The notes below the pieces were generated by a model, which saw nothing but the letters and a program-made list of their open reading frames with translations, was not told the origin of the DNA and searched no databases. 64,000 nt of DNA from Promethearchaeota archaeon (GTDB lineage Archaea; Asgardarchaeota; Lokiarchaeia; Sigyniarchaeales; SOKP01): contig JBHLNF010000001.1 in assembly GCA_048937405.1 (NCBI GenBank), positions 32,001 to 96,000 of the forward strand, read 5' to 3'. Numbering within the stretch: the first letter of the stretch is position 1; each line of letters opens with the position of its first letter. Position numbers and translations under genes: made by a program. Shown here one piece after another: positions 8,801 to 44,239 of this stretch.

Positions 8801-10274
8801 ACAAAATTCCTTCCAAAAAAATATTGATGAGCTTAAACTTAAAAAAGAGAATTTCTGGGAGATTACCGAAAATCTACGAAAGCAAATAGATGAAGAAAAT
8901 AAATCTCTTGAAGATACTTTGGATCGATTAAGAGCACTTGAAAATGTTATGAGATTAATCACCTCTATCGAAGATATTAAAAAAGAAAATACTGAATCGA
9001 ATAAAAAAATTGAAGAGTGTCAAAATGAGATTAAAGGATTAAACTCTAAAGCAGAAGAAATTCAAAAAATTATTGATGAAAAACAACAGGTAATAGATAC
9101 TTTTAGAGATGAAAAAACTAAAGAGGTAGACGCACAAAAAACAGCCCAAAAGAATTTGAATAAATTGAATAAAGATGTACAGAAATCGCAAGGAAAATTA
9201 AATGAACTTAATAAAAATAAAGAAAGAGAACAAAAAATCATTGGATTAGGCCAAGATATAAAGGATACTGAAGAACAAATAGAATCAATTTCAAATGAAT
9301 TAATCAGCTTAAAAGAAAACTTGGATACTGTAAACGCAAAGAAAGATGAAAAACAAAGTGAAATTGACAAGTATACCCAAGAAAAGGATGAATCTTGGAA
9401 AAAACAAAAAGAATACCAAAAGGTTTTGACAGACTTAAAGTCAGACCTTTCCATGGAAAACTCTAAAATAAATAATTTTGAATCAAAAAAGATAATGTGT
9501 ACAGACCAAATTGAAACTCTATTCCAACGATCCAAAGAATATGGGTCATTACCCCCTGTAACCGAGGATCTTTCAGAACCAACATTACAATCTGAAATTG
9601 TCGAATCTACTAAGAAGAAAAAAGCTCTTGAGCCTGTAAATCTAAAAGCTATTGAACAATATGATACTGTGAAAGAACGATTCGATGAAATTGATATGAG
9701 ACGACAAACTATTCAAAGAGAGAGAAAATCCATCCTTGACGCTATTGATAAAATTGAACTTGAAAAAACTCGTACCTTCATGAAAGCTTATCATGAAATT
9801 AATAGAGAATTTAGCCGAATTTTTCAAAAACTCAGCCCCGGCGGGTCTGCTAAAATGCTTTTAGATCGACCAGATAAACCTTTTGAAGGAGGGGTTAGCA
9901 TCGAAGCTAGACCTCGTGGTAAAAAAATCTCAAGCTTGGAAATTTTAAGTGGAGGTGAAAAAACATTGGTAGCTCTCTCGTTTATATTTGCGGTGCAAGA
10001 ATTTTACCCAGCACCTTTTTACGTTCTAGATGAGATTGATGCGGCCCTCGATGGCCCCAATGTTCACAGAGTCTCGATGGTACTGAAGGAGTTTTCCTCG
10101 CAAGCACAATTTATGGTTATAAGTCATAGAGAGGAGAATATTGTAAATGCGGATAGAATATATGGTGTTTCTATGCAACAAAGTGGTATCACCGATATCT
10201 TTAGTGTAGATTTAGAGGAAGAAGCTAAAAGACTTCTTGAACTTGAAGATGTCGAACCAACCATTACAGAATAA
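5823..10274 (+). CDS. smc: SMC chromosome ATPase, unusually long, no recognisable hinge
   Basis: GFKSF, GPNGAGKSN, VLQG Q-loop, EPVNLKAIEQY, LSGGEK, LDEIDAALD, ISHR; TTG start with GGAG upstream. Confidence 0.92.
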   Translation: MTYIKKISMSGFKSFGDRTVTIRLSSGFTCIVGPNGAGKSNIIDALCFSLGRMSKKTMRAKSLEDLIFAGSRGKNPSQRASVTLYFDNSDNVFPGGPEDFEITRIIKRGGGGGYKMNGKKTTRQQILNALAAANVDPDGSNQFVLQGKIVELTHMNAEDRRKFIEELIGLQKYDEMKDATLKELEKAERDLGQFEAIFKEVSAQLKKVEKEKNDALAWKEIDQQINLLNSQLIALKISKLRKEEDELEGKIENSLKIIEELQEKINRQEDILKQESLVMDNIQKTISDKEKEREEITEKITQVKTEISSSQTTLNLAKKSIDKLTQEIENLESQQMELEEGQTFDSLIETVSKEILEYETHIEDAKNEIEKRQQNQAELDVKIKTSEDEKSLSNKEISKIQQSISSNNAQIKMLRGNIKKNEEKKEKLENELQRLKKDAESIDEAIEATKKTESEIRKRINDLNTKISKENQNQKDLETEISNIQTEKNQLNSKLTDFQASLSSLNTEIKMNQENIQELNEKKISTEKKIADLSKGRDAEKAVKELLKENDTINKELSELKAVFKQENSIFRKNEQELELAKMKSHSYESETNDNKSKIDNMNTELKIFSKELTKLEREKNNLELQVDSLNENLTSITGESEKLQTKKENVQRRLEELSKERDNFVKKIESSEEEYEKNTKDITGILQILNMLTQNINISVESIKSNIQQSNAEAIESSAEDFKKFILDIFDIMKTVEDIGNGQERSTEMTDMLNSIMQTLKLFTDNADSTISQLIDKVKESADVEIQTSTSTFDSFVQDLMEILENVYLSLRKLTMSKSQELYKQLEELSETINSQTDDFNKIEKQLSESNIQKNHYSENLSAYNKRLEEINKRTNQLNERIKKAKEEIHEREETISNRQQEINKLDSEITKLKELKDTYWDRISKIQDDIDNKQKEQEILRGKLQELHGIQNLFDNITEIDENVEKLNNLITEKKTLILNTEETIKTIQDEQNSFQKNIDELKLKKENFWEITENLRKQIDEENKSLEDTLDRLRALENVMRLITSIEDIKKENTESNKKIEECQNEIKGLNSKAEEIQKIIDEKQQVIDTFRDEKTKEVDAQKTAQKNLNKLNKDVQKSQGKLNELNKNKEREQKIIGLGQDIKDTEEQIESISNELISLKENLDTVNAKKDEKQSEIDKYTQEKDESWKKQKEYQKVLTDLKSDLSMENSKINNFESKKIMCTDQIETLFQRSKEYGSLPPVTEDLSEPTLQSEIVESTKKKKALEPVNLKAIEQYDTVKERFDEIDMRRQTIQRERKSILDAIDKIELEKTRTFMKAYHEINREFSRIFQKLSPGGSAKMLLDRPDKPFEGGVSIEARPRGKKISSLEILSGGEKTLVALSFIFAVQEFYPAPFYVLDEIDAALDGPNVHRVSMVLKEFSSQAQFMVISHREENIVNADRIYGVSMQQSGITDIFSVDLEEEAKRLLELEDVEPTITE

Positions 10275-10287
10275 AGAGAATGATGAG

Positions 10288-12099
10288 TTAATTTTTTTTT
10301 TTACATTCTTGGCATCTGCTCCCTTGATATACAGCACCAGGAGTTGTATTCCACACATGTTCATTTTTACATTTTATGGTAATAGTTTTGAACCGACCTT
10401 TGTAAGGAGTTAATAAACTCCATCCTTTCTTATGTATAAAACCTTGAAACTTTTTTGCATACTTATCCATTTTACATTCTGGACAGAAATTCTCAATGTT
10501 TTTATAATGTCTTTTAAGCCCTTCTGGTGATTTTTTAAATTTATGACCTTTTTGACATTGATACCATAATGGAGTTTTTGCATTTACATATTCATTAACT
10601 AATTTACAATTAAAGATTCTCCCAATTTCTTGAAAATATTCCGTTGTTCCTTTTTCATTTCCAGCACATTTTGAACACCAATTATTCTTATATACAGAGT
10701 CTGGTGTAGTGGTCCATTGATGTCCCTTTTCACACATAATTGTAACTTCTTTTTTTGCTGTAAAATAGGGTGTAATTAACGCTCCACCTTTTTTTTCAAC
10801 ATAATCTCTAAATTTTTTTGCATATTTATTTTCATGTATTATAAATTCCCGATAATCATATCTAGGTCCTTTTTTAAGATCTTTTTTAGTCTTTTTTTTA
10901 TATTCTTGTTCAATATATTTCTGCATTTTATAATAGGGTACAATTTTATCATCAGGGACTTGAATGAGGGTTACTCCATTATCTTTGCATAATTTCAATT
11001 TAAGAGCATCTTCTTCTTGTAGTTTTTTCAATTCTTCTTCAGTCATACCAAAAGCTTTTTTTCGATGTTGAATCCCCTGATACTCAAACGCTAATCCTAA
11101 CTCTTCGTTATATCCATCGAGTTCCATTTGATTTCCGTTTTCATTAACTAACCATTTAGGATAACTTTTTGGAAAGGACTTTTTGAAAATCTTTTCAAAA
11201 AATCTTCTACAGATTGTTTCGCTAATGTATAAATGACAATGTGGACACCAAGTTTTTGAATAAACTACACTATTATAAGTAGTATAAAAATGATGTCCTT
11301 CAGCACATTCAAGATGAATTTTTGACTTGGCATTTTCTAAGTCCGTTGTATGACATTTACCGCCTTTCTTTTTTGCGATTTTTAAAATAGTATCAATTGT
11401 AACATGTTTTTGAGTGCGAATATAATCCCGATATTCTTTTTGTATAAATATCCTTTTTAGTTGGTTCCGAGCGGAAGTATCACTAATGAGAAGCCATTTT
11501 TGTATATCATATGCATTAAATTTACCTTTGTTCTTTAAAACAAGATTTTTAATAGTGTTATTTAAGACATCTTCATCCCTAATTTTCGTTGTTAATGTGA
11601 TGTAATGTGAAAGTATTTTAGTTTGGTCTTTAATGAGAGTGGAATGGTTAGTTTGAGAGACATCTTCAAATTCATTTTTTTTATTTTTAATAAAATCAAT
11701 AAAGGTTTGAGTTGGGCGAAAATTTTTTATCCAGCAGCCAGAGTTATTGAACTCATTCACAATTTCTTTTATTGACTCGTTTCCATGAGTGTATTGCAAA
11801 AATTCTTTGAATTTTTCGGAATTCTCTGGCATTGAAATATCTTTTGGGAATAATTTTAATTTTTCCTTAGTTTTATTGAATTCATTGATTTTTGGTTTAT
11901 TATTAGTAATTTCTTTTTCTTCGATTGTTTTATTGGGAGTTTCTCGATTCTTGAATCTATTATTAACCGATTTTTGTGGTGACTTTTGTTTGATTTTTGT
12001 TTTAGTTTCTGTTGTAACTTTATCCTTTCTTGATTTTCTTATTTCTTTCCGAACTGGTCTCTCATTCCTTTCAAATTGGGGCATTTTTGATCTTTTCAA
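10288..12099 (-). CDS. Zn-ribbon (CxxGH...CxxC) repeat protein with PD-(D/E)xK endonuclease domain
   Basis: Four CxxGH/CxNEH...CxxC repeats; ELDGYNEELGLAFEYQGIQH nuclease motif. Confidence 0.75.
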   Translation of the reverse strand: MKRSKMPQFERNERPVRKEIRKSRKDKVTTETKTKIKQKSPQKSVNNRFKNRETPNKTIEEKEITNNKPKINEFNKTKEKLKLFPKDISMPENSEKFKEFLQYTHGNESIKEIVNEFNNSGCWIKNFRPTQTFIDFIKNKKNEFEDVSQTNHSTLIKDQTKILSHYITLTTKIRDEDVLNNTIKNLVLKNKGKFNAYDIQKWLLISDTSARNQLKRIFIQKEYRDYIRTQKHVTIDTILKIAKKKGGKCHTTDLENAKSKIHLECAEGHHFYTTYNSVVYSKTWCPHCHLYISETICRRFFEKIFKKSFPKSYPKWLVNENGNQMELDGYNEELGLAFEYQGIQHRKKAFGMTEEELKKLQEEDALKLKLCKDNGVTLIQVPDDKIVPYYKMQKYIEQEYKKKTKKDLKKGPRYDYREFIIHENKYAKKFRDYVEKKGGALITPYFTAKKEVTIMCEKGHQWTTTPDSVYKNNWCSKCAGNEKGTTEYFQEIGRIFNCKLVNEYVNAKTPLWYQCQKGHKFKKSPEGLKRHYKNIENFCPECKMDKYAKKFQGFIHKKGWSLLTPYKGRFKTITIKCKNEHVWNTTPGAVYQGSRCQECKKKN

Positions 12100-14190: not shown

Positions 14191-16383
14191 TCAATTATTA
14201 TATTCAAATTTCCATTTTTCCCAAAAATCGCGAGTTTCAGCATAAGATTTAACAGAATAATGCGCTAATTCGTGAAATAAGTTAACTAAGTCATGATTTT
14301 CAACTTTTTCACAATTTAAAAGATACTTAAAGATTTCCTCATAAAGAATTATAAAGTTGTTAAAGATATTTTCATTTAGTTTTTCGAATTTCTTTAACTT
14401 AGTAATTGTTTTACTTTCATAGAGTTTTTTGAGCAAATTCCACTTTTCTGATTCTGGATCATAAAGAAATAATTCCCTATAATAATCTCCAGCATGATAA
14501 TTACTCAAATCAATTTCTGAAACAGAGACAATTCTCCTCTTATTAAATTCTCGGTTCATTAAAACTAATAAATCTAAATCATCCAATTGAGAAAAATTAA
14601 TTTTAAATGTATGAATTAACCGATTTATTAAAGAATCAATGTCTTGAGAGTGGATTGTTTGAAATCCTCTTAATCCCGCAGCCAGACAGTGAAACCAAGC
14701 TTTAGCTTCTTCTTCTGTTAGAATCTCTCCTAAATAAATAATGTCCGGAGTACGATGAAGTAGTGTTTTTATATGATCGCTTTTTGTGTATCGATTCTTA
14801 TTAGTTGTATCTAATGAGTCTGCTTGATATTTAAGCTGATGTTTACTGAAAATCAATTGTTCTAATGACTCGGTGACATTTTCAACATATATTTTTCGAA
14901 AATACTCTGGGGAAATCATATCGAATGCGTTAATTAAAGTAGTTTTACCTGTATCTGTCTCTCCTGTTACTGTGATGTTTACTCTTCTTATCATACAGAA
15001 GTAGAGAAACGCTGCCATCAAAGGATTAAGTGTATTTGTTTTCATTAAATCTTGAAGTGTTAAAATATTTTTATTCAATTTTCTAATATCCAATGAAAAG
15101 GTATTGACATTAATAGGTTTAACATCAATGGCAAATCTACAGTAAAAGTATTTGTTTTTAATGACGTATTTTAGAGTTGGATTAGAATAATCCAATCTTT
15201 CCTGACTATATAGTCTTAATAATGTAATTATTCGCTTTATGTCCTTGCTAGATAAAGTTATATTCGTACGACAACGACCGTATTTTTGGTGATCGATATA
15301 AACCATACTCTCAGGGGAATCTAAAAATATTTCTTCGATATAATTATCAATTAAAAGTGGAAAAAGCGTATTTAATTGAAGAAATGTAATGGCACAATAA
15401 AAAGCAATTCTTTTTTTCTTATTTTCATCCATCTTATAATTAAGGTCAATAATTCGTAAAGCGTCTTTCTCATATAAATCAATTAAATGTTCCAATGAAA
15501 CAGTATCCTCAAATCTTAAAACTTGCATATAAGAAAGAATATTTTCAATCAACTTTTCAAAATAGGATTTTTCTGATTCCGATTTATGAATTAATTGATA
15601 CTGATATAATTTTTCTGTCTTGTTTGCTATTCCAAATATTTGAATTTGATACAAACCTTTACCAATTTGGTAAGAATGCAGTAGTCTTTCTTTATTCGTT
15701 TCAAAGAATTTTGTGTCTGAAAGGGCTACTTTTTCATCAATTTCCTTTAATGAATGAGATTTTGTAATCAGAAACTCATAAAAATAAAAAATATCTTCAA
15801 ATTTGGAACTTTCCTGTAGGGTAGTTTTATATTTTCTTATTAACTCTGAATCTAAAATTATTAATAATCTTTTTTCAATTTCCTTACATTTTTCAATGCA
15901 ATCAGAGCATACAGAATCTACAGAACTAAAACCTTCGATTTGATCTACTATACGCTCTGTCTTGAAATATAATGAAATTGGATCTTTAAGATCTTGTTTA
16001 TTTAAGGCAAAGAAAGATTCAAAATCTCCAAAAATTCTACATCTAAAATTATCTTTATAAACACATGTTTCTCTTATTTTCAATAATTTTGAATAGATCT
16101 TTCTAACTTTTTCTGTGTTTTTAAGACTTTCAAGTAATAATTTTGTTGTTTTTTGATCAGTTGCAACGTCTAAAGCTTGAATGTAAATTCTTTCGAATGA
16201 TTTATCTTTATTATTTCTCACACTATTGAAAAGGCAGTAATAACATTTCTTATTCTTTAGAAAATGTTTAGAATTTTCTGGACACTGGTTGCATTCAATA
16301 CTTAACACTTTTTCTTTATGTCCTTCAAGATTTTCTTTTCTTTGAATAGTTGTTTTAGTGTTGTTCAGTTCAATCATTTCCAA
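14191..16383 (-). CDS. Type II/IV secretion ATPase (VirB11/TadA/ArlI-like) with Cys-rich N-terminal extension
   Basis: PLLIDNYIEEIFLD, SLDIRK, Walker A GETDTGKTT, LHRTPDIIYLGEI, QTIHS. Confidence 0.9.
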   Translation of the reverse strand: MEMIELNNTKTTIQRKENLEGHKEKVLSIECNQCPENSKHFLKNKKCYYCLFNSVRNNKDKSFERIYIQALDVATDQKTTKLLLESLKNTEKVRKIYSKLLKIRETCVYKDNFRCRIFGDFESFFALNKQDLKDPISLYFKTERIVDQIEGFSSVDSVCSDCIEKCKEIEKRLLIILDSELIRKYKTTLQESSKFEDIFYFYEFLITKSHSLKEIDEKVALSDTKFFETNKERLLHSYQIGKGLYQIQIFGIANKTEKLYQYQLIHKSESEKSYFEKLIENILSYMQVLRFEDTVSLEHLIDLYEKDALRIIDLNYKMDENKKKRIAFYCAITFLQLNTLFPLLIDNYIEEIFLDSPESMVYIDHQKYGRCRTNITLSSKDIKRIITLLRLYSQERLDYSNPTLKYVIKNKYFYCRFAIDVKPINVNTFSLDIRKLNKNILTLQDLMKTNTLNPLMAAFLYFCMIRRVNITVTGETDTGKTTLINAFDMISPEYFRKIYVENVTESLEQLIFSKHQLKYQADSLDTTNKNRYTKSDHIKTLLHRTPDIIYLGEILTEEEAKAWFHCLAAGLRGFQTIHSQDIDSLINRLIHTFKINFSQLDDLDLLVLMNREFNKRRIVSVSEIDLSNYHAGDYYRELFLYDPESEKWNLLKKLYESKTITKLKKFEKLNENIFNNFIILYEEIFKYLLNCEKVENHDLVNLFHELAHYSVKSYAETRDFWEKWKFEYNN

Positions 16384-16398: not shown

Positions 16399-16776
16399 TT
16401 AATCATTTCTTACTGTGATTTTAATTTGAGTAGCAATAAAATTATTGGATGGATCATATGCTCTGATTTCTAACCAATATTTCCCCACATTAAGGATAGT
16501 TTTACTTATGATTACTCCTTCATTATTGATATATAAATTAGAAGTATCATTGATCCAGTAGTGGTCAATACCAGAAACGTCAGATGCATTTACATCATAG
16601 AAGAAGTACTCTCCATATTCTATAATTTGATCTTTAGGTGTTTGATCCCATATAGGTTTATCATTATCCTTTCTATACTCATCAACTTCTTTTAAGTTGG
16701 GTATTATCCAAATTAGGAATGAAGATAATATTATAACACCTACTGCCAATAATAGTACTTTCTCAATTGTTTCCAT
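16399..16776 (-). CDS. Pilin-like N-terminal helix fused to an Ig/cadherin-like beta domain
   Basis: METIEKVLLLAVGVIILSSFLIWII then PIWDQTPKDQ...YDVNASD...LEIRAYD...IKITV; 15 bp upstream of the ATPase. Confidence 0.6.
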   Translation of the reverse strand: METIEKVLLLAVGVIILSSFLIWIIPNLKEVDEYRKDNDKPIWDQTPKDQIIEYGEYFFYDVNASDVSGIDHYWINDTSNLYINNEGVIISKTILNVGKYWLEIRAYDPSNNFIATQIKITVRND

Positions 16777-17009
16777 GTCTTTATTTTAAGAGAAAAGAAT
16801 AAAAAGTCCCATAATTTCATAGCTATTTTTTTTGATAAATTTAAAGATAAAAAAATGGGTGGATACAAAGTTCAGTGATTATTAAATTTACAAGATGTTG
16901 ATTTCATTGATGGTATAAATTGATTTTGTAGAGAAATTTTTAAATAAAAGAAAAGATAGGCAATAGTATAAATCTCATAAGTAAATATGATATAAAGAGG
17001 AGCGAAAAA

Positions 17010-17795
17010 ATGGCAGAAGTTGTAATTGCGTTATTATCTCCTATTGCAACATATATAGGAAAAAAGATTGTTGAGAAAATTAAAAAGAAGGATGACCAAA
17101 AAGAAATTAAAATAGATGTTAATAGTCCAGATTATAATGGGACCGCAAATCACTGGGTAACTAATCTATTTGAGCGTATAAATGAACAGAAAGATAACGA
17201 TCTCCAATATGCCTATATAGGGGATAATTTGGGAACTTCCATTGAAAAAGATAAGGATGTCTCTACCCTTAAAATGCATATCTCAAAAGTAGATCAGGAT
17301 GCGATGAATGAGCTTATAAGCAATAACCAATGGGCAGCGCAAAATGATCCCATTCATGGCAATGCGGTATTTAATTTTGCCATCCCTCAAGTTGCATATG
17401 CTCAAACGGCTGATGATACTCATCAAATAAAATATAAAGATTTCTCATCAATTCCTCTGAATGGAAAATATATGTTTACCACTAAATTACGTGCTCCAGA
17501 TTACGGAAAACAAGATCCAGGTGATTTCTACAAAAAAGGGGGGACGTTTGAAATTCCTGTCTATTTAGAACAACCAGCAACAGAATATGAAGTGTACCCT
17601 GTAACTCCTCCTGCCCCCAAAATCCCTGATTATGCCATCCAAACGAAAATCATAAAGGATCAATCACAATCACTCAAACCAAGTGATGAGGTTTTTGTTT
17701 TTTGTCCTTTTTGCGGTACTAGAATACCCAGAAGCGCAAATTTAAAATTCTGTTCAGTATGCGGGAAAGATATCGAAAAGCACCTTAATTTTTAA
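17010..17795 (+). CDS. Hypothetical protein with C-terminal double Zn ribbon
   Basis: FCPFCG...FCSVCG; Pro-rich linker; amphipathic N-terminal helix; GAGG upstream. Confidence 0.75.
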   Translation: MAEVVIALLSPIATYIGKKIVEKIKKKDDQKEIKIDVNSPDYNGTANHWVTNLFERINEQKDNDLQYAYIGDNLGTSIEKDKDVSTLKMHISKVDQDAMNELISNNQWAAQNDPIHGNAVFNFAIPQVAYAQTADDTHQIKYKDFSSIPLNGKYMFTTKLRAPDYGKQDPGDFYKKGGTFEIPVYLEQPATEYEVYPVTPPAPKIPDYAIQTKIIKDQSQSLKPSDEVFVFCPFCGTRIPRSANLKFCSVCGKDIEKHLNF

Positions 17796-17839
17796 TTAAT
17801 ATTTGAATTACAATTTAATACTTTCGTTAGGAAAAGAAA

Positions 17840-18052
17840 ATGGTAAATACAAATATTCTATGGAAAAAAGCACAGGAGTATGAAAAAAACCATAATTATA
17901 GGGAAGCGATTAGAATTTATCTAAAAGCGACTCAAATTGACTTGAAAGGTGGAAAGAAAAAATATCTTTCTGCAGAATTTAATAAAGAAAGATTTTGTTT
18001 GCAAAAAATAAGAAATTTAGACGGAGTATTGAATCTTCTAATAGAGCATTAA
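17840..18052 (+). pseudogene. Truncated paralogue of the N-terminus of TPR gene 23751-26018
   Basis: ILWKKAQEYEKNHNYREAIRIYLKATQIDLKGGKKK vs ILWNKAREYYKKHNYREAATIFLKAAQIDLKMGKRK. Confidence 0.7.
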
Positions 18053-18145
18053 AAATTGAAATTAATTATAAAAATTTTTGATAGCGCTTAAGCATGTTTA
18101 TAATTTAGAAAAAAATAAAATATAACGAGATTAGGTATAAAAAAA

Positions 18146-19903
18146 TTGTTATATAAGGAGGGATTTAGGGAAGTTGCTCAAAAATATTCAGGAGATCTTG
18201 ATAAGATATTGAAATATTATCAGGAATTATTGAAGACCAAAAAAGAATCAGATGACCAAAAAGCTATAGCATTTATACTTAATAGGATAGGAAAAACATT
18301 CTATAAAAAAGGAAATTATGAAGAAGCAATGAAAAATTTCAAAATTGCTTTAAAAATCTATGAAAATTTAGGATTCCTTAAACAAAAAGCAGAAGTATTG
18401 ATAAATATAGGAAAAGTATATAAATTTGAAGAAGATTGTGATGAAGCTTTAGATTATTATCTTGATGCTTTAGAAATTGATGAACAATTAAATAATCTCT
18501 CCGGAAAGACAAGAGATATAAATGAAATTGGATTATTATTTAAATTCATTAATGAATATGATGAAGCTTTAGAAAATTTTGAAAAAGTATTAAAAGAACT
18601 TGAAGAAATAGATGATTTAGAGATAAGAGCCTCTACCTTAGCTTATATTGGGGCAACATTAAAAGACCAAGGTAAAAATGAGGGGGCTTTTAACTATTTC
18701 TACGAATCATTAGAAATTTACAAAAAATTTATGAATATTACAAAAAATGCCGAGGAATTTTATAATAATATTAAAAAATTAAGAGATATTAAACGCTTAG
18801 ATTATATTAGTAACGTATTTGAGATTTCAGATATTATTGAGCATCCTATGAGAAAAACTATCTATGATATAAATGTATATTTAAAGTATATTGATCTCAA
18901 AACCGCCTTAGAATTCTATAATTTATTATTCAATGAATCTATCCATTCAGAAAGACCATCCAAATCTTATTCTGATCTTAGAAATATAGGACAAGCGTTA
19001 AAAGCAAAAAGTTATTATGCCCAAGCTTTAGAGTTCCTTAAAAAAGCTTTAGAAATCATAATAGAAAAAGGAAAAAGTAAAGAAGTAGATTTCAGGAAAG
19101 GAATATTACAGTGTCCAAATCCCGAATGCAACCAAGAATTATCAATTAAATTACCTGGGATTCTAAATGCAATCTTTGAAATATGTTCAAGATGTAAAAC
19201 ACAATTTTCTATATGGATGTTAAATCAAAATGATTCTAAAGGTATTCTTAACATAATTTCTAGAAGTGTTTCTAATAAGATAAGTTCTAACATAAATATT
19301 GAGCTAGAAAGTAAACGAGGAAAAGAAAGTGATACAAAAATGTTAGATAATATACATAATACGATTATGATAGTCAAGGAGATTGGAGTTTGCTTTTATC
19401 GACTTAAAGATTATCTTAATTCTGCTAGATATTTCTTACAAACAGCAAATTTATATAAACAAAAAGAAGATAAAAATAGTTCCAAAAAGTATTTAGATTA
19501 TGTTATTAAATTATTACCGGGAATTGATGTAAAAAATAGACAACTTATAGAACATGAAATTAATCATCTTTCAAAAGTTTCTCCTGAAAGCCTAAGAAAA
19601 GCAACGCCTTTTCATACTTTTACTTCCTGTCCAAATTGTCATCGTAGGTATAAAGTTAATATTGTCGATATCACCATCGCAATATTAATTTGTCCTCGGT
19701 GTTCAGCAAAATTTTCAGTATATTTTAATAAAAGTACACAAGAATTTTATACTAATATTTTAGAGAAACCAAAAATTAAAGCATTAAGCCATCCTGACCA
19801 GAAAGAAGGGGATTTAGTTAAGTTCTGTGCCAGATGTGGACTGAATTTAGGTATTATCGTAAAATATTGTATAAGGTGTGGTTTAGAGATAATAAGAGCG
19901 TGA
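18146..19903 (+). CDS. TPR protein with shared C-terminal multi-Zn-ribbon module (paralogue 1)
   Basis: ~40-aa TPRs; CPNPEC, CSRC, CPNC, CPRC, FCARCG, YCIRCG. Confidence 0.85.
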   Translation: MLYKEGFREVAQKYSGDLDKILKYYQELLKTKKESDDQKAIAFILNRIGKTFYKKGNYEEAMKNFKIALKIYENLGFLKQKAEVLINIGKVYKFEEDCDEALDYYLDALEIDEQLNNLSGKTRDINEIGLLFKFINEYDEALENFEKVLKELEEIDDLEIRASTLAYIGATLKDQGKNEGAFNYFYESLEIYKKFMNITKNAEEFYNNIKKLRDIKRLDYISNVFEISDIIEHPMRKTIYDINVYLKYIDLKTALEFYNLLFNESIHSERPSKSYSDLRNIGQALKAKSYYAQALEFLKKALEIIIEKGKSKEVDFRKGILQCPNPECNQELSIKLPGILNAIFEICSRCKTQFSIWMLNQNDSKGILNIISRSVSNKISSNINIELESKRGKESDTKMLDNIHNTIMIVKEIGVCFYRLKDYLNSARYFLQTANLYKQKEDKNSSKKYLDYVIKLLPGIDVKNRQLIEHEINHLSKVSPESLRKATPFHTFTSCPNCHRRYKVNIVDITIAILICPRCSAKFSVYFNKSTQEFYTNILEKPKIKALSHPDQKEGDLVKFCARCGLNLGIIVKYCIRCGLEIIRA

Positions 19904-19951
19904 AATTAGTATAAAAAAACTATTAAAATAAAAAGATATGAGAGATAAATT

Positions 19952-22900
19952 ATGTCCAAGAAAATAGCATTTGAAGTGCAAGAATTATATAATAAAGCAG
20001 AAGTTCTTATTGAGAAAAAGAAATATGAAGAGGCACTATCAATTCTAAATAAGGTGTTAAATATCGAACCTGAATATGCTGATGCAATGAGTAAAATAGG
20101 AACTGTACATACATTACTCATTTTCAAGCAAATGTCAAAAGAAGAAGTCATTAAACTTTCCGAGAGAGCATTAGAGTTGAATAATCATTCTCCAGTAGTA
20201 TGGACACAAATGGGAATAGCTCATATGATAAAGATTGAATTTGATAAAGCAATCACATGCTTTCAAAAAGCTATTAACCTTAAACCCGATTACTCTAAGG
20301 CTTGGAATGGAATGGGAGTTGCTTATTTAACCTTAAAAAAATATGATATAGCGATTGAATGTTTACAAAAAGCAATTACTATCAAACCAGATTACGCCAT
20401 GGCATTTAATAATATTGGATTGACTTATTTGAATAGAAAAGATTATGTTAGAGCACTCGAATACTCTCAAAGAGCAATAGATATCGATCCAGAAATATAT
20501 AATCCTTGGAATAATATTGGAATAGTCCATCTGAATAATAAAGCGTATAATAAAGCACTTAATTGCTTTCAAAAAGTAATCGATCTCAAACCAGATCACT
20601 TCCAAGCTTGGAATGGTATGGGAGTTGCTTTTTTAGCAATAAGAGAATACAATAAAGCGTTCGAATGCTTTCAAAAGACTATTGAGTTTAAATCTGATTT
20701 TTTCGCTGCGTGGAATAGTATGGGATCGATTTATATAATTAAGAAAGAATTTGATAAAGCACTCGAATGCTTTGAAAAAGCTGTTAAACTCAAACCTGAC
20801 TCTATCGCTTCGTGGAATAATTTAGGACTAATATACCTAAACCTAAAAAATAGTGATAAAGCACTTACCTGCTTTCAAAAAGTAATCGATCTCAAACCAG
20901 ATCACCTCAAGGCATGGAATAGCATAGGATTAATTTATAAGAGTAAAAAAAAATATGGTAAAGCTATTGAATGCTTAGAAAAAGCACTCGAATTTGATCC
21001 AAATATAATAAATCATGTTGCCTATCATTCACAAATAGGCTACTTTTATTTTCAACTAGGGCAGTTTGAAAAAACTATTGAAGAACAAAATAGATCTTTA
21101 GATCTTAAAAAGGATTACCCTCCTGCAATATGGGAAAAAAGCTTAGCGTATAGGAAGTTAAAAAAATATCAAAAGGCAGTGTTTTGGATGCAAGAATATA
21201 TAAAACTGAAACCTAAGGAGCATCTCGCTTATTATCAAATTGGATTAAATTTACGCAATCTTGGAAATTATAAAGAGGCCATTAAAGCCCATAACCATGC
21301 ATTAGATTTAAAAAAAGATTTTGCGGTTTCCATGTTTGAAAAAGGTAAGTTGTATATACAACTTGGGAATTTTAAAGAAGCAATAACGCCTTTGAGGGAG
21401 TATTTGACGTTAAAACCTAATGATCATTCAGCTTATTATCAATTAGGATATTGTCTACGTGAAATCGGACAATATGAAAAAGCTCTTCAGATACAAGATT
21501 GCGCATTAAAAATCAAGAAAGATTATATTCCTCCATTATGGGAAAAACATTATTCATACATACAGTTAGAAAAACATCAAGATGCAATTAATCAATTAAA
21601 AAAATCGTTAGAATTAAAACCTAATGACTTTTTGGCTTATTATTTAATTGCAGAAAGTTATATGAACCTAGAAAAATGGGGAGATTGCCTCGAAGCGATT
21701 AATAAAGCATTGGAGTTAAAACCAAGTGATAAAGATGCATTAATTCTGAAAAAACAAATTTCATTGGTAAAAAATATAAATGAAACTGATTCAATTGATG
21801 AAAAAATTAGATTAGCAATTGCTTTGGATGAAAATCAACCTGAACTTAAAATAAAAGATGGTATCGAAGAGATTTTAAAAGATTTCCGAAACTTTTTACG
21901 AGAGGAGGGACCTTCGATGAATGAGCTTTCTGAGGCATTAAAAATCGCAAAAGATATGGATTTCTCCTTAAAAGATGCATTTCAAAGTGAAGAATTTAAG
22001 AAAATGGTAAAGGATAATCCAGACATGAAGAATTTTTTGCAACCTTTATTAGAACAAATACAAGCAGGACCGGATAAAATATTACCGGGAAGTGATACAA
22101 AAATAATGAGAGAAATCTTAAAAGATAATGCTTTAGGAGGATTTGCAGAAGTTATGAGTGATGTTTCAGATCGTATGGCAGATATTGATGAAAGCATTAT
22201 AGCTATTGACGAAGCCATTCAAGAATATAGGAAGAAAGGTAATAATGAGATGGTTGCAAAATTTCTTTTGAAAAAAGGAAAAAATTTAATTGAATTAGGA
22301 GAAATCAATTCTGGGATAAATGCAATAGAGGAAGCTCTAATAAAGTTTGAAAAGTTAGGTAATAATAAGGGAATTGTAAAGAGTTTAATTGAAAAGGGGA
22401 AGTATGAAATATTTAATAAAAATTATGAAATTGCAATTTCTTATTTAGAGAGAGCAACTAAAATAGCTCAAAATATCAAAAATAAAAATTTAGTCTTATA
22501 CTGCTGCACATATGTCCTATTGGGATATTTGGAATCAGGAAAAATAGAAGAGTTAGTAAGGTTTTTCGCAGTTAACGAAAGGATCTTTGATAATTTCTTT
22601 AAAATGGAAGGGATAGAAGACCAAGAATTAATTCTTTTATATTTAGAAACTTTTGGTAGAGCATCTATGAAAATTTCCAAAGATTACGAAAATGCACTTA
22701 CAATTTTTCAAACAATGGAAAAATATGGAATAATTTTTTTTAAGTCAGTAGAGGTGGCAAAAGCACACTATTATGAGGGATTATGTTATCATAGATTAAA
22801 AAGATACTCCGAAGCGTTGATAGAATTTAATAAGGCGTTGGATCACATTCAAAAGCAAATCAAGGGAAAAGAATTAGATTTTAAAGCCGGAGTAGTAAAA

Positions 22901-23692
22901 TGTCCAAATACAACATGTAAACAAGATATTCAAATTAAGATAACAGGTATCACCGGAGCAATAATAGAAACCTGTACAAATTGTAACACACAATTTTCTT
23001 TATGGGTTACTGAACCCCAAATATCGAAATGTTATTTAACTGTTCTTTCTGATGATATTAAAGTTGAAAATAGTTCAATACATTCAATTTACTTACAAAA
23101 GAAGAAAGGGAGAAAAACAAGTACAAAAATTGCGAATTTATTAAATCTTGGTGCTATGATTACATCACAGATGGCTTTTTCTTATAAGGATAAAAATGAA
23201 TACCTTAATGCAGTAAAAACTTTTTTCCAAGCAGCAAGCATGTATCAGGCACTTGGATTAGTAGAACAAACTGAAATTAATTTAAATGAAACTCGAGGAT
23301 TATTTCCAAAAATCGAAATTAAGGACCAAGAATTATTAAACCATGAAATACAACGACTTTTAAAACAGACTCCTGAGAATTTAAGAGGTAGAGATTTTAC
23401 ATACATTTTCATTTCATGTCCAAATTGCGGTACCGAACATCAAATTAGAGCAAGTTTAACAACTGTAGCAGATGAATTCTGCTCTAAATGTCAAGTAAAA
23501 TTCTCAGTGTTTTATAATGACGAAACTCAAGAATTTTACACCAATATTTTAGAAAAACCGAAAATTAAAACATTAAGCCAAGCTGAGCGAAAAGAAACTG
23601 ATTTAGTTAAGTTCTGTGCAAGATGTGGACTAAATATAAGTATTATCGCACGATTTTGCACGAGATGTGGATTGAAAATAGTAAGAGAATAA
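19952..23692 (+). CDS. Large TPR protein (34-aa repeats) with shared C-terminal multi-Zn-ribbon module (paralogue 2)
   Basis: Repeated AWNxxG...A..CFQKAI.LKPD; same C-terminal module. Confidence 0.9.
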   Translation: MSKKIAFEVQELYNKAEVLIEKKKYEEALSILNKVLNIEPEYADAMSKIGTVHTLLIFKQMSKEEVIKLSERALELNNHSPVVWTQMGIAHMIKIEFDKAITCFQKAINLKPDYSKAWNGMGVAYLTLKKYDIAIECLQKAITIKPDYAMAFNNIGLTYLNRKDYVRALEYSQRAIDIDPEIYNPWNNIGIVHLNNKAYNKALNCFQKVIDLKPDHFQAWNGMGVAFLAIREYNKAFECFQKTIEFKSDFFAAWNSMGSIYIIKKEFDKALECFEKAVKLKPDSIASWNNLGLIYLNLKNSDKALTCFQKVIDLKPDHLKAWNSIGLIYKSKKKYGKAIECLEKALEFDPNIINHVAYHSQIGYFYFQLGQFEKTIEEQNRSLDLKKDYPPAIWEKSLAYRKLKKYQKAVFWMQEYIKLKPKEHLAYYQIGLNLRNLGNYKEAIKAHNHALDLKKDFAVSMFEKGKLYIQLGNFKEAITPLREYLTLKPNDHSAYYQLGYCLREIGQYEKALQIQDCALKIKKDYIPPLWEKHYSYIQLEKHQDAINQLKKSLELKPNDFLAYYLIAESYMNLEKWGDCLEAINKALELKPSDKDALILKKQISLVKNINETDSIDEKIRLAIALDENQPELKIKDGIEEILKDFRNFLREEGPSMNELSEALKIAKDMDFSLKDAFQSEEFKKMVKDNPDMKNFLQPLLEQIQAGPDKILPGSDTKIMREILKDNALGGFAEVMSDVSDRMADIDESIIAIDEAIQEYRKKGNNEMVAKFLLKKGKNLIELGEINSGINAIEEALIKFEKLGNNKGIVKSLIEKGKYEIFNKNYEIAISYLERATKIAQNIKNKNLVLYCCTYVLLGYLESGKIEELVRFFAVNERIFDNFFKMEGIEDQELILLYLETFGRASMKISKDYENALTIFQTMEKYGIIFFKSVEVAKAHYYEGLCYHRLKRYSEALIEFNKALDHIQKQIKGKELDFKAGVVKCPNTTCKQDIQIKITGITGAIIETCTNCNTQFSLWVTEPQISKCYLTVLSDDIKVENSSIHSIYLQKKKGRKTSTKIANLLNLGAMITSQMAFSYKDKNEYLNAVKTFFQAASMYQALGLVEQTEINLNETRGLFPKIEIKDQELLNHEIQRLLKQTPENLRGRDFTYIFISCPNCGTEHQIRASLTTVADEFCSKCQVKFSVFYNDETQEFYTNILEKPKIKTLSQAERKETDLVKFCARCGLNISIIARFCTRCGLKIVRE

Positions 23693-23750
23693 AAATAGGT
23701 GTTTAATTAATAATAAAATTTTGACTTTTCACTCACATAAAGGATAAAAA

Positions 23751-26018
23751 ATGGAAGATTCGAAAATTCTATGGAATAAAGCTCGAGAATATTATAAAAA
23801 ACATAATTATAGAGAAGCAGCTACAATTTTTCTCAAAGCAGCTCAAATCGATTTGAAAATGGGAAAAAGAAAAGAAGCTTTAGCAAAATTTACTTTTACA
23901 GGAGCATGTTTGTATAATATAGGAGAACTGGATGGAGCGTTGATGAATTATAAGAAAGCATTGGAAATTGCCGAACAATTGGGCGATAAAAAGGGAAAAG
24001 CCATTATAGTGAACAATATCGGGTTGATATTACAAGATAGGGGAGACCTGGATGGAGCATTGAAAAACTATAAGGAATCGTTGAAAATTGATGAACAATT
24101 AGGTAATTTGAAGGCAAAATCTACTAGATTAAACAATATCGGTTTTATTTTAAAAGAGAGGGGAGATCTGAATGGTGCATTGAAATATTATAAAGGCGCT
24201 CTAGAAATTGCTGAGAAATTGGGTGATAATGAGAATAAAGCAATATATTTAAACAACATCGGCTATATTTTACAAGATAGGGGAGATCTGGACGGAGCAT
24301 TGAGGTATTATAAAGAATCATTGAAAATCGACAAACAATTGGGAGGTTTAAAGGAAATTGCAATTGATTTGAACAATATCGGGTCTATATTACAAAATAA
24401 GGGAGACCTGGATAATGCTTTGCAATGCATTAAGGAATCCTTAGAGATTGCTGAACAATTAGGGGATAAAAAGTTAAAAGCTACAAGATTAAATAATATC
24501 GGTTTTATATTAAAAGATAGGGGAGATCTGGATGGAGCATTGAAGTATTATAAAGAATCGTTGAAAATCAACGAACAATTGGGTGGTTTAAAGGATATGG
24601 CAATTAATTTGAACAATATCGGGTTGGTATTACAAGATAGAGGGGATCTGGAAGGAGCATTGAAAAATTTTAAGGAATCCTTAGAGATTGCTGAGCAATT
24701 AGGGGATAAAAAGTTAAAAGCTGTTAGATTGAATAATATCGGGATAAATTTATACTCTAGAGGAGATCTGGATGGAGCATTGAAAAATTATAAGGAATCC
24801 TTAGAGATTGCTGAGCAATTAGGGGATAAAAAGTCAAGAGCTATTAGATTGAACAATATCGGACTGATATTACAAGATAGGGGAGACCTGGATGGAGCAT
24901 TGAAAAATTATAAGGAATCCTTGGGGATTGCTGAACAATTAGGGGATAAAAAGTTAAAAGCTGTTAGATTGAGCAATATCGGTTTTATAATAAAAAAGAG
25001 GGGAGATCTAGATGGAGCATTGAAATATTTTAAGGAAGCTTTGGAAATCGATAAATACTTAGGCGATATAAATGGAGAAGCCATAAGAATGAGAAATATC
25101 GGATTAATATCAAAAGATAAGGGAGATCTGGACGGGGCGTTGAAGTATTATAAGACAGCCTTGGATTTAATTCAAATACAAATAAAAGGAAAAGAGTTAG
25201 ATTTTAAGACAGGACAGATTTTTTGTCCAAATCCACCTTGTCAACATCCTATCCAGATCAAATTTGTAGGAGATTTAACGGTTTTTATTCAAACTTGTCC
25301 AAATTGCTTGACACAATTTTCAGTATGGATGACTGATCCTAGCAGTTCCAAATATATAATAAGTGTATTTTCAGAAAAAATGTTGGAACAGAGGAAAATT
25401 GTATCTGGAACAATAAATCTGCGGCATCAGTCAGGAAAAGAGACACAAACTACAATTTCAGAATGGTTGCATGATGGGGCGATGATCACTTCTCTTATTG
25501 CATATTGTTTAAAGCAGAAGGGAGATTTGTTAAATGCCTGTAGTTATTATTTTCAAGTAGCAAGCATGTATCAAGCACTCGGATTAATAGACAAAGTAGA
25601 AAAAAATTTAAAGTTACTTGAAAATTTATTTCCAGAGATTTCAGGGGAGAATCAAAACAAATTCTCTCATGATATAGCTCAGCTTCGCAAACAAACCTCA
25701 GAAACTTTAAGATCGAGAGATTTTATTTACATTTTTATTTCATGTCCAAATTGCGGTACCGAACACCAAATTAGAGCAACCATTACAACTGTAGCCTATG
25801 AGCTCTGCTCTAAATGTCAAGCAAAATTCTCAGTGTTTTATAATGAAGAAACTCAAGAATTTTACACCAATATTTTAGAGAAACCTAAATTCAAAACAGT
25901 AAGCCAACCCGAGCAAAAAGAGACTGATTTAGTTAAGTTCTGTGTAAGATGTGGGCTGAATGTTGGAATGATTGCTAAATTTTGTACGAGATGTGGATTG
26001 AAAATAGTAAGAGATTAA
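23751..26018 (+). CDS. TPR protein (40-aa near-identical repeats) with shared C-terminal multi-Zn-ribbon module (paralogue 3)
   Basis: About 11 copies of LNNIG.IL.DRGDLDGALK.YKESL.I.EQLG; same C-terminal module. Confidence 0.9.
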   Translation: MEDSKILWNKAREYYKKHNYREAATIFLKAAQIDLKMGKRKEALAKFTFTGACLYNIGELDGALMNYKKALEIAEQLGDKKGKAIIVNNIGLILQDRGDLDGALKNYKESLKIDEQLGNLKAKSTRLNNIGFILKERGDLNGALKYYKGALEIAEKLGDNENKAIYLNNIGYILQDRGDLDGALRYYKESLKIDKQLGGLKEIAIDLNNIGSILQNKGDLDNALQCIKESLEIAEQLGDKKLKATRLNNIGFILKDRGDLDGALKYYKESLKINEQLGGLKDMAINLNNIGLVLQDRGDLEGALKNFKESLEIAEQLGDKKLKAVRLNNIGINLYSRGDLDGALKNYKESLEIAEQLGDKKSRAIRLNNIGLILQDRGDLDGALKNYKESLGIAEQLGDKKLKAVRLSNIGFIIKKRGDLDGALKYFKEALEIDKYLGDINGEAIRMRNIGLISKDKGDLDGALKYYKTALDLIQIQIKGKELDFKTGQIFCPNPPCQHPIQIKFVGDLTVFIQTCPNCLTQFSVWMTDPSSSKYIISVFSEKMLEQRKIVSGTINLRHQSGKETQTTISEWLHDGAMITSLIAYCLKQKGDLLNACSYYFQVASMYQALGLIDKVEKNLKLLENLFPEISGENQNKFSHDIAQLRKQTSETLRSRDFIYIFISCPNCGTEHQIRATITTVAYELCSKCQAKFSVFYNEETQEFYTNILEKPKFKTVSQPEQKETDLVKFCVRCGLNVGMIAKFCTRCGLKIVRD
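23890..25170 (+). repeat. Coding tandem array of ~11 x 120-bp TPR units
   Basis: AACAATATCGG...GGGAGAYCTGGATGGAGCATTGA recurs every 120 bp (e.g. 24012, 24132). Confidence 0.9.
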
Positions 26019-26197
26019 GGATATTATCATGTTCTATTTTTACTTAAAGGCTTTATCGTATCCTTGAATAATGTTTATTTGATAATAATTTAAAAAATCT
26101 TTAAAGGTTAAGGCTATTATAATATAATCTAATTTATCCATTTTAATATCATTAAAGAGTAACACTGAATTTTGCATATACCCAAAAAAATCTTATT

Positions 26198-26938
26198 TCA
26201 TAAATAAGATTCACGTTCTTCTGTACTAATTTTTGCCTGCCCTAAATTATGTAAATCTTTTGAAGAGAAATTCTGAGCTAATAAATCCAAAATCATTTCT
26301 TTTAAAAATTCATTCTCTTTCCCTTTAGAAGAAAATTTATTTAATAGTGATTTTTCAAGGTTGTCAATTGCCTTCTTTTGAAGATTATTAAAATTTTCAA
26401 GTGACTTCTTTTGAGAATCGTTCAAATTTTTCATAGAATTTTCTAACGTTTTTTTTAGACCCTTAAACCACTCTTCTTGTTTTTCCTTCAAGCTTTTAAT
26501 TAAATTCTTTTCTTTTTTCTCCTTATCTTTACCTGCTTGGTTATCCTTAGTTTTTCTATTGAGAATTTTATCTTTAAACTTGGTTTGAGAAAGATTTTTC
26601 CATTTCTGGGTCGTAATTTTTTCGTTATTCATTTGTAAATCTTGAGGGTGATTTTCATGATTCTGAGTGTCCTTTGGGTGACTTTCTAATGACAAACTTA
26701 GAGATGATTTTTTCCATTGATGATTAGTAACTTTTTTTTGATCTGGTTTTTTTTTTTGGATTAGAGTTGTATTTTCTAGCAGGTTTTTGGATTTTTTATC
26801 AGTAGGCTTTTTTAAATTAGGACTTATTTTCTTTATATTTTTTATACCTGAATTTTTACTGGAAATCTTATTTTTTTTATAAAGAGTGGAATTATTAGTT
26901 TTTTTTTTGCTGGGAGTTTTACGCATTTTTTTATTCAT
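26198..26938 (-). CDS. Lys-rich protein with low-complexity N-terminus and coiled-coil C-terminus
   Basis: Composition and heptad pattern; co-oriented downstream of the HerA-like ATPase. Confidence 0.6.
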   Translation of the reverse strand: MNKKMRKTPSKKKTNNSTLYKKNKISSKNSGIKNIKKISPNLKKPTDKKSKNLLENTTLIQKKKPDQKKVTNHQWKKSSLSLSLESHPKDTQNHENHPQDLQMNNEKITTQKWKNLSQTKFKDKILNRKTKDNQAGKDKEKKEKNLIKSLKEKQEEWFKGLKKTLENSMKNLNDSQKKSLENFNNLQKKAIDNLEKSLLNKFSSKGKENEFLKEMILDLLAQNFSSKDLHNLGQAKISTEERESYL

Positions 26939-27034
26939 ATTTCTTAATCACTTACTTAAGTTTTTATAAAATAGTAAAAACTACTGATAAATTTGAGATA
27001 AACAATAAAAACTAAACAAAAAATTAAGAAGGGA

Positions 27035-38451: not shown

Positions 38452-39162
38452 ATGGCGGTTGAAGATTTTAAAGAATGTTCAATTTGTTTTGAAAAATTGG
38501 AAATCCCTCAAAATGATTTTAAACCAAAATTCAGTATAGGAACAATATGTAGAAAATGTTTTGATAATTTTACTCCTCAAGAAAATGAGATTTTAATTCA
38601 TGCTTTTAATGTAGCACGTGGAATATTTCAATTCAATGAGAAATGCATTAACGCTATAAAAGATGTGCTTTTTGATGTTCAGTCTGAATTAAAAACTAAT
38701 AAAAAAAGATCAATCAGCCTACAGGGCATTTTTCAGAAAATTCTAATCCGATCTCAGGTTTATGGACTTAAACTAAATATTTTTTTTAATTTAAACTATC
38801 ATTTCTTTCAAAATCAATCAAGGAAATCAAATTGTGATATTTGTAATCAAAAAATAACAGAAGTTGAAGATAATAAGGATTATGGATTAAATAATCAGAG
38901 AGTCTGTGAAAATTGTATTCAAAAATTTACTGATGATGAGATTAATACTATGATTTCATTAATTAAGAAATATGGTGGATATTTTAATGAAATAAAGGAA
39001 AATAAAGTTACTATCAAGCAAATCTTAGAAAACATGCTTTTTAACCTAAAAAATGAAGAAGATTTTTCAGAAATGATAGAAATCAATGAAAAAGCATTGC
39101 ATTTTGCTTTGCTTTATGGTTACCATCCCAAGCTCTTTATAGAGGAATTAAAGAAGCGCTAG
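38452..39162 (+). CDS. Protein with two tandem CxxC...CxxC Zn-finger/helical units
   Basis: CSIC..CRKC..FT and CDIC..CENC..FT internal duplication. Confidence 0.75.
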   Translation: MAVEDFKECSICFEKLEIPQNDFKPKFSIGTICRKCFDNFTPQENEILIHAFNVARGIFQFNEKCINAIKDVLFDVQSELKTNKKRSISLQGIFQKILIRSQVYGLKLNIFFNLNYHFFQNQSRKSNCDICNQKITEVEDNKDYGLNNQRVCENCIQKFTDDEINTMISLIKKYGGYFNEIKENKVTIKQILENMLFNLKNEEDFSEMIEINEKALHFALLYGYHPKLFIEELKKR

Positions 39163-39376
39163 GAAATGCAATAAGCTATATTTATTTAATTGAAACAGGA
39201 TTAAGTTCAAATCCATTATTGTTAAGGGAAATTGTAATATATTAGGTCTTACTCAGTTTTTTTCTTAAGAATTGTTAATTAATCAGTTTAAATTCTCTTC
39301 ATAAACACACACCATAGGTTCTACGATTGTATAATTATTATTAATGATCTTGAATTTCTTTTATCTTAAAATTAGT

Positions 39377-40381: not shown

Positions 40382-40450
40382 TTTTCGTTTTTTATTAGAA
40401 ATTTATTATTTTCTTATTTATTCATCTTATTTAAAGGAAAAATGAAGAAT

Positions 40451-40471
40451 GGGTGTGTACAAAATTCAGTG
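40451..40471 (+). repeat. Third copy of the 21-bp TIR motif (solo end)
   Basis: GGGTGTGTACAAAATTCAGTG; 18/21 identical to each end of the 16857-26183 element, and 21/24 to the left end including the following ATT. Confidence 0.65.
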
Positions 40472-40511
40472 ATTTGAAGTCCTCTTGATATAAAAATATA
40501 CCCAATTTGAT

Positions 40512-40952
40512 ATGATTAAAATTTGTGATTTACACATCCATAGTAAATTCTCGGGTGAAGCAAGTAAAAATATTGATATTTTTAAAATAGCTAATAATTA
40601 TAGGCTTAAAGGAATAGATATTGTAGGAATAGGTGATTGTCTTCATCCATTATGGAGAATAGAATTAACTAATAATTTTATTGAATACTTGGATGATGTA
40701 TTTTTTACTCCAAAATTGCCAAATATATTCTTTTTCTTACAATCAGAAATTGAAGCAATTTGGAGCAATAATTCAAGTGTTAAAAAGGTTCACTTCATTC
40801 TTCTATTTCCAAACTTTGACAAATAAATAATAGATTCTCTTAATTTTTCAAAGATTGGAAATTTGGATAGGGAAGGTAGACCCAAAATTTACATTTCTGC
40901 TGAAAAATTAATTATTGGTTTAAAATCGATAGATAAAGACACAGAAATTATT
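40512..40952 (+). pseudogene. Truncated duplicate of the 5' ~440 bp of the EndoQ-family gene (62051-62491)
   Basis: Near-identical protein start MIKICDLHIHSK; DNA similarity continues past the stop at 40826; contains an internal micro-inversion. Confidence 0.9.
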
Positions 40953-40970
40953 TATTTTTCAATTTGATTT

Positions 40971-44211: not shown

Positions 44212-44239
44212 AGTGTATTTATATATTAGGAATAATCTA

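Follow-up and report, generated by a model that had tools for sequence, protein, structure and literature searches.

We analyzed a 64,000-nucleotide stretch of the genome of a Promethearchaeota archaeon (GenBank assembly GCA_048937405.1, contig JBHLNF010000001.1, positions 32,001 to 96,000; here called the window), in which a 9,327-bp block of genes lies between short inverted repeats. We conclude, with a probability of roughly 0.85, that this block is a mobile insertion cassette (MIC) of an unnamed, Promethearchaeota-associated family of Mutator-like insertion sequences (IS) that is sited at TATA boxes. The block inserted as one unit and duplicated 8 bp of its target. We assign it to the MICs because passenger genes lie between IS-type ends, the element lacks a transposase of its own, the target is duplicated, and the empty site is found in relatives.

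The 21-bp ends agree at 17 of 21 positions and the identical 8-mer abuts both, as an initial annotation of this DNA had reported (Table 1). The interior consists of + strand genes only, which encode a 261-aa Zn-ribbon protein (open reading frame 1 [ORF1]) and tetratricopeptide repeat (TPR)/Zn-ribbon proteins; the gene block had been described in the same terms, except that its second gene turned out to be broken by a frameshift. No transposase was found inside the element, again as first noted. A profile of the ends scored at least 22 bits at six places in the genome, five of which are the training copies, versus zero to one place in shuffled sequences. The flanking genes had been labeled a pilus operon; this label derives from a match to FlaI/TadA-type ATPases, the neighboring pilin and platform genes having been judged by eye only.

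Two genomes of the same genus (G034 and G066) carry the empty site, with the flanking genes 89 bp and 87 bp apart, respectively. Once the element is taken out of the window, genes 26198-26938 and 16399-16776 are exactly 86 bp apart, matching the ~86 bp of the initial annotation. Both genomes align colinearly over the junction, with identities of 81% and 74% in the neighboring ATPase, and the A-tract is single at both of their empty sites. The expectation of an empty site in relatives was thus borne out, although the A-tract has diverged in both genomes, so these two genomes by themselves do not locate the break with single-base precision. Since contigs assembled from public sequencing runs span the left junction (run X1, which may be the source sample) and the right junction (runs of three studies), the structure of the element is not an assembly chimera.

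The end motif is present in 36 of 134 genomes of the host's family, compared with 0 of 134 for a reversed-pattern control, and it brackets three kinds of elements: IS, miniature inverted-repeat transposable elements (MITEs), and gene cassettes. The IS copies measure 1,626 to 1,645 bp and carry one gene of ~470 aa, and complete copies with matching ends and perfect 8-bp duplications were found at loci L089, L092, L102, L086, and L224. MITEs with the same ends are 119 bp long. The family includes at least 15 different gene cassettes, which at 0.5 to 3.3 kb carry whole genes (such as those for a methyltransferase, a glyoxalase-family protein, HIT, GNAT, and membrane proteins, and an HD-CE protein). 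A perfect 8-bp duplication flanks 31 of the 56 non-redundant end pairs outside the window, and none is found at 7, 9, or 10 bp (the null, from mismatched end pairs, is 0.65%). The A-rich 8-mer of the window, taken alone, is weak evidence, as the initial annotation had cautioned, since the window contains 44 copies of it; its weight comes from these family pairs. One methyltransferase cassette occurs at four sites with four different duplications, which shows that transposase-less cassettes move as units. Where elements stand in tandem, abutted ends lie 8 bp apart in 7 of 9 cases, a spacing compatible with a circular intermediate and also with re-use of one target. The window element is the largest with both ends seen, most other loci examined being too short for such a size. 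The proposal of a non-autonomous, cargo-carrying DDE element was therefore upheld by the empty site and by ends that belong to a real IS family. Paired ends with 8-bp duplications around a transposase, which had been suggested as a check, do occur in related genomes; membership of this transposase in the IS256 family is not supported, however, and the further copies in the window's own genome are solo.

Three loci of the family stood out. L068:1766-3277 is a head-to-tail stack of one MITE and two cassettes, with an identical 8-mer on the outside and between the units. A 3.3-kb cassette at L069:1539-4833 has a perfect duplication and encodes a 999-aa HD-CE plus HSP90-like ATPase protein, a defense-type architecture. 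At L096/L106 (G016 C73:11881-15479), the family transposase is interrupted by ~2.3 kb with reverse-transcriptase-like frames.

We analyzed the target in 38 rebuilt empty sites. The duplication, which ends in a T-run, is followed by three bases and then by a TTTAWA box, which lies exactly 11 bp from the element end at 29 of the 38 sites; the background of this box is 0.9% among intergenic T-run 8-mers of the window genome. The target consensus is tight over ~15 bp, and that of the duplication is AAAAWNNN. A gene start comes next at 36 of the 38 sites, compared with 60% of random intergenic positions and 62% of motif occurrences without an element, and it is 15 to 90 bp away at 23 of the 38, compared with 15% and 26%, respectively (P = 7e-6 against the latter). 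When a looser box was allowed, 76 of 217 strong ends had it at offset 11, whereas every other offset gave 17 or fewer. The box is faced by 16 of 19 left ends of the IS but by only 1 of 17 right ends (P = 2e-6). These results show that the elements insert in one orientation and at a fixed spacing, 11 bp upstream of a TATA-like box with a gene behind it, a property that is new beyond the initial annotation. The window site conforms as well, its box lying at 16845-16838 and the start of the following gene, at 16776, 69 bp farther on. The position preceding the box is T-rich, unlike the canonical B recognition element (BRE), and neither a canonical A-rich BRE nor a sharp TATA peak emerged upstream of host start codons. 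A literature search, with most subscription journals outside its coverage, did not retrieve any account of the family or of archaeal TATA targeting. One promoter appears to be a hot spot, as three different cassettes (L067:1059, L071:1616, and L135:1630, in G096, G123, and G095) occupy it with the same 237-aa gene downstream.

The IS gene encodes a 470-aa DDE transposase in which D190, D249, E373, and a CxxH motif at 271-274 are invariant. The insert between the second aspartate (D2) and the glutamate is 123 aa long and mainly helical in the structural model (predicted local distance difference test [pLDDT] score of 74.8). Prokaryotic Mutator-like transposases (p-MULTs) are defined by a DDE domain with a helical insert of 99 to 138 aa and a C/D(2)H motif after D2, and their elements have ends of 18 to 39 bp with a conserved terminal base and duplications of 8 to 9 bp (PMC3942029). 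The family shares with them the DDE domain with its insert, the CxxH motif, 21-bp ends starting with G, and the 8-bp duplication, although its CxxH sits 22 residues past D2, slightly over the 11 to 19 given (PMC3942029). The best structural match was ISCth4 of the IS256 family (Foldseek E value of 1.8e-10; Z score of 16.8 and root mean square deviation [rmsd] of 5.3 over 342 aligned residues), with which the transposase shares ~15% identity; the next match had a Z score of 10.9, and Hermes and integrases were well below.

No named family claimed the transposase by profile. Scores reached at most 28.5 bits for IS256 (NF033543; cutoff, 150; distant relatives, at most 52), 30.7 bits for ISH6 (NF041731; cutoff, 240), 41.3 bits for IS6 (NF033587; cutoff, 125), and 40.7 bits for IS66 (NF033517; cutoff, 180), and the ISLre2 and ISKra4 profiles gave no match at an E value of 0.1 for seven members. 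IS6 was rejected on its score and because a 470-aa protein with an insert differs from the short, insert-less IS6 transposase. IS66, which has a three-gene layout, was rejected on its score and on the single-gene structure of the IS found here, and ISH6 on its score and because the target is AAAAWNNN rather than AANATNTT. IS256 proper was rejected as well, the protein being far below the profile cutoff and the target motif tight. A PDB sequence search with the transposase profile gave no match, and the only likeness to eukaryotic Mutator-like elements (MULEs) was a marginal PF20700 match (E value of 0.042) in 1 of 12 members. Taken together, motifs and the predicted fold support placing the transposase in the Mutator-like superfamily (Mutator/IS256) but outside every named family, so that of the original "IS256/Mutator-like" label the superfamily survives and the IS256 membership does not. 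At 90% identity the transposases form 166 clusters, the few with a taxon being Promethearchaeota or other Asgard records, and the records are named hypothetical or transposase-like. A sister clade (L073:2472-3896 and L082) has 26 to 28% identity to the main family and lacks clear copies of the ends.

We propose that a relative's transposase, acting in trans, would bind the two 21-bp ends and, by analogy with IS256 and other p-MULTs, would join them into a circle in a copy-out, paste-in process. The cognate IS is found in relatives and not in the window assembly, and smaller cassettes occur at several sites. Siting may be guided by a bound complex of TATA-binding protein (TBP) and transcription factor B (TFB), an idea toward which we lean slightly. 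Landing just upstream of the box with an 8-bp duplication would spare the downstream promoter, and a spared promoter would make a 9-kb insert inside a gene cluster tolerable. The duplicated T-tract may likewise preserve the terminator of the upstream gene: read on the − strand, 26184..26191 is a T-tract 6 bp past the stop of gene 26198-26938 and could possibly terminate its transcription. The ancestral cassette probably held ORF1 and one TPR-Zn gene, as in sister elements, and then gained two older paralogues. The window element is now stranded, since no transposase is present in the assembly and ORF2 is probably decaying. More broadly, and with a little less than even confidence, we suggest that an Asgard Mutator-like transposase tethered to TBP/TFB would insert with base precision upstream of TATA boxes, shuffle whole genes, TPR scaffolds among them, in units of up to 9 kb, and capture pieces of host genes. 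We consider a direct ancestral link to eukaryotic MULEs improbable.

The same element could also have reached promoters if the transposase reads the DNA itself, recognizing a T-tract plus TTTAWATA, perhaps in bent form, with promoters hit only through the presence of this sequence and through the purging of other insertions. The tightness of the target consensus over ~15 bp favors such direct reading, as does the sequence-defined AT-rich target of another p-MULT family, ISH6 (p-MULT 2; PMC3942029), and selection does filter the insertions that survive. However, unoccupied motifs precede a gene start at a rate close to that of random positions (62% versus 60%), whereas occupied sites do so in 36 of 38 cases, and selection leaves the fixed orientation toward the gene start unexplained. 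We therefore regard direct reading as possible but doubtful. A different history, in which two family members (IS or MITE) came to flank a resident TPR cluster that itself never moved, draws on the solo ends in the window genome, on the tandem stacking of family members, and on the occurrence of the ORF1 plus TPR-Zn module without detectable ends in several genomes. This composite origin is already largely refuted by the empty site: the cluster is absent here in two relatives, and its C-terminal domain occurs in only 5 of 133 family genomes. Given also that both ends share a single 8-bp duplication and that sister copies elsewhere share both subterminal regions, we consider it very improbable. 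The initial annotation had itself raised the alternative that the 21-mer is a transcription factor site, and one may add that of a chance repeat, the gene island having arrived in another way. Three further copies in the window genome are indeed unpaired and intergenic, but across the family the motif terminates complete IS, MITEs, and cassettes with 8-bp duplications and is paired around transposase genes, at the solo copy (40451) the match to an IS end extends over 59 bp, and the reversed-pattern control is empty in all 134 genomes. This alternative accordingly fails and is barely credible.

Several observations weigh against an insertion cassette sited at TATA boxes. The 38 target sites are partly dependent, as they include nine MITEs of one genome and two or three insertions at one orthologous promoter, and the gene starts are first-ATG guesses. 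The TATA-like box of the window site is missing from the empty sites of G034 and G066 and so may be lineage specific. No second copy of the 9.3-kb unit was found in the genome, nor was a cognate transposase found in the window assembly by searches with PF00872, a single protein, the A2 profile, or six-frame hmmsearch; multicopy IS are often left unassembled. When compared with sampled IS ends, the subterminal DNA of cassettes was not more similar than shuffled sequences except for the 40451 relic and, marginally, C11. The sequencing-run contigs contained neither the circle junction for which the initial annotation had advised looking nor the exact empty-site joint. Finally, one contig of run X3 joins 16832 to 26985, without the element and the 246-aa gene, at identities of 98% and 93% on its two sides, and in run X3 the element is covered about half as deeply as its flanks. 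Because G034 and G066 both retain the 246-aa gene, we attribute this contig to an independent deletion in a related strain. Of relatives lacking the block, in which breakpoints away from the ends had been named as a warning sign, G034 and G066 are thus colinear, whereas the X3 breakpoint does lie away from the ends.

Counterparts of both traits, cassette formation and promoter siting, are known in bacteria, and the system described here is an archaeal MIC system under an unnamed Mutator-like family. The idea that such an element would be a prokaryotic first does not hold, since MICs of 3 to 19 kb have been described in bacteria, with those of the Tn3 family in Xanthomonas and others in the Bacillus cereus group (PMC4337579). 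Like the window element, MICs carry passenger genes between IS-type inverted repeats, lack their own transposase, and duplicate their target, and they move in trans, as is proposed for the window element; here, in contrast, the host is archaeal, the 21-bp ends are short and Mutator-like rather than of IS4 or Tn3 type, and insertion is fixed at putative promoters. IS256 inserts without a conserved target motif and transposes via a circle, and p-MULT circles have their ends 6 to 10 bp apart (PMC3942029). The family resembles IS256 (p-MULT 1; ISCth4 structure, 6XG8) in its DDE core with helical insert, CxxH, G-starting ends, 8-bp duplication, and closest solved fold, but it differs in an extra Cys-rich N-terminal part, C-terminal helices, a strong target motif, and a score below the family cutoff. 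ISLre2/TnGBS (p-MULT 3) and the ISKra4 group insert in one orientation, 15 to 17 bp upstream of the sigma-A −35 box (PMC3942029). These elements are likewise Mutator-like, oriented, and placed at a fixed distance upstream of promoters, whereas here insertion occurs 11 bp upstream of an archaeal TATA-like box, a putative promoter, and the profiles do not match.

Pack-MULEs of plants have long ends, carry mostly gene fragments, and prefer the 5' regions of genes. The likeness to them that the initial annotation drew holds in function, as both are non-autonomous Mutator-superfamily elements with host-type genes between their ends and a preference for gene 5' regions; it does not extend to the cargo, which here consists of whole genes between 21-bp ends, with fragment capture only at the 40451 relic. 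Aloposons of Heimdallarchaeia (PMC8813620), which PMC11529989 names as the only non-viral integrated elements reported from Asgard archaea before, are also Asgard transposons with cargo, but their giant tandem genes, four-gene module, and tRNA-gene integration are all absent here. The Asgard literature examined describes aloposons and other integrated elements and not this transposon family.

The transposase clusters, nearly all of them unnamed or "hypothetical," point to gene flow in Loki-type archaea by a common route that has gone unannotated, and transposase-less cassettes would escape standard IS tools. Fixed-distance promoter targeting is known in bacterial Mutator-like and some eukaryotic elements. 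If docking on TBP/TFB is correct, insertion sites would flag genuine promoters in the genomes of Asgard archaea, most of which are uncultured, and the transposase would offer a testable model for the preference of Mutator for gene 5' ends. If the tethered cassette system exists as proposed, maize Mutator and Pack-MULEs would have a functional counterpart among archaea, in the lineage closest to eukaryotes. The system might also be of use as a promoter-sparing integration tool.

Table 1. Coordinates of the element, its target, its cargo, and related features in the 64-kb window
Feature	Position	Strand	Remarks
TATA-like box TTTAAATT	16838..16845	-	11 bp beyond the left end (counted from the start of the box); gene 16399-16776 starts 69 bp downstream
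Target-site duplication (8 bp), left copy	16849..16856	+	AAAAAAAT; matches AAAAWNNN, target consensus of the transposon family
Left terminal inverted repeat	16857..16877	+	21 bp; identical motif terminates autonomous IS copies
Left subterminal region	16878..17009	+	Common to sister elements: 81% (L140), 76% (L120), 80% over 98 bp (L048)
ORF1, 261 aa	17010..17795	+	Uncharacterized core and C-terminal Zn ribbon
ORF2, TPR plus multi-Zn-ribbon paralogue	17840..19903	+	Long branch
ORF3, 1246 aa	19952..23692	+	34-aa TPR array and shared Zn-ribbon C-terminal domain
ORF4, 755 aa	23751..26018	+	40-aa TPR array and Zn-ribbon C-terminal domain
Right subterminal region	26019..26162	+	76% identity to sister element in L140/L121
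Right terminal inverted repeat	26163..26183	-	21 bp
Duplication (8 bp), right copy	26184..26191	+	AAAAAAAT
Host flank gene, 125 aa	16399..16776	-	Precedes FlaI/TadA-type ATPase (14191-16383)
Host flank gene, 246 aa	26198..26938	-	Adjoins the 125-aa gene in G034 and G066
Relic, same family	40451..40951	+	Left end of an IS; 90% identity to the IS of L091 across 59 bp

The three TPR genes of the cargo share a C-terminal domain with several Cys pairs. ORF2 is interrupted by a frameshift near 18030, which leaves frames 17840-18052 (70 aa) and 18146-19903 (585 aa). Over most of the domain, ORF4 is nearer to the single TPR gene of sister elements than to ORF2 or ORF3, implying that the extra paralogues are old rather than recent tandem copies. 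In the model of ORF1 (mean pLDDT of 57; core, ~70), CS/small heat shock domains filled nearly all top rows of the structural comparison, the best with a Z score of 7.5 (common arrangements also score in this range) and an rmsd of 2.6 over 94 aligned residues; as a lead only, the core may be a CS/HSP20-like sandwich. With its TPR arrays and Zn ribbons, the cargo is suggestive of protein binding and most likely acts as an accessory scaffold for it, possibly co-chaperone-like, although our confidence in this role is low. PADLOC returned generic TPR matches only for the cargo, the ESM Atlas gave no usable match for ORF1 or the Zn-ribbon domain, and no parent copy of the cargo was found elsewhere in the genome.

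All of the long loci read, a Hodarchaeales record among them, have a TPR-Zn gene immediately after ORF1, and this module is patchy, as the distribution of its C-terminal domain indicates. In G096, which belongs to another genus, the left end ahead of the module is intact, and its first 153 bp are 76% identical. In the G080 species the module occupies a different locus and its two ends are decayed; identity to the subterminal DNA of the window element is 81% at one end and 76% at the other. At L048:700-2110, the same left end and the first ORF1 codons run into an unrelated repeat-protein gene, which indicates that ends swap cargo. The module also occurs without detectable ends (L122, L123, L142, L144, L146, and L148), which points either to past capture of the module or to decay of the ends.

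At the 40451 relic, the IS end runs through the five bases ATGAT into an 89% identical copy of 444 bp from the 5' end of a TIGR00375-like host gene (61301-62500) that lies 21 kb away, with the fusion at the start codon. The copy is ended by a stop, and a small inverted stretch lies near 40805-40862. As the only direct clue to how cargo is acquired, this structure fits capture by template switching, but IS-driven rearrangement would account for it too. No partner ends were found within 60 kb or before the contig end for the solo copies at 40451 in the window, C11:31251, and C17:98517. In the window genome (G000), the solo end at C11:31251 lies 11 bp from a TATA-like box and is followed by a 762-aa gene (SIR2-like by eye), and that at C17:98517 has no box. 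Gene order across window positions 38452-45659 differs from that of G066, with the break at ~39.2 to 42.3 kb, where the solo end lies; since the region around the relic is rearranged, relatives do not delimit it. Long noncoding AT-rich stretches occupy 41.6 to 44.2 kb. Elsewhere in the window, 36-bp tandem repeats (48800-49015) lie within a 355-aa frame (47964-49031), and at 5823-12099 an SMC-type gene (1483 aa) is convergent with a 603-aa gene that has repeated Cys/His motifs and no NCBIfam match.

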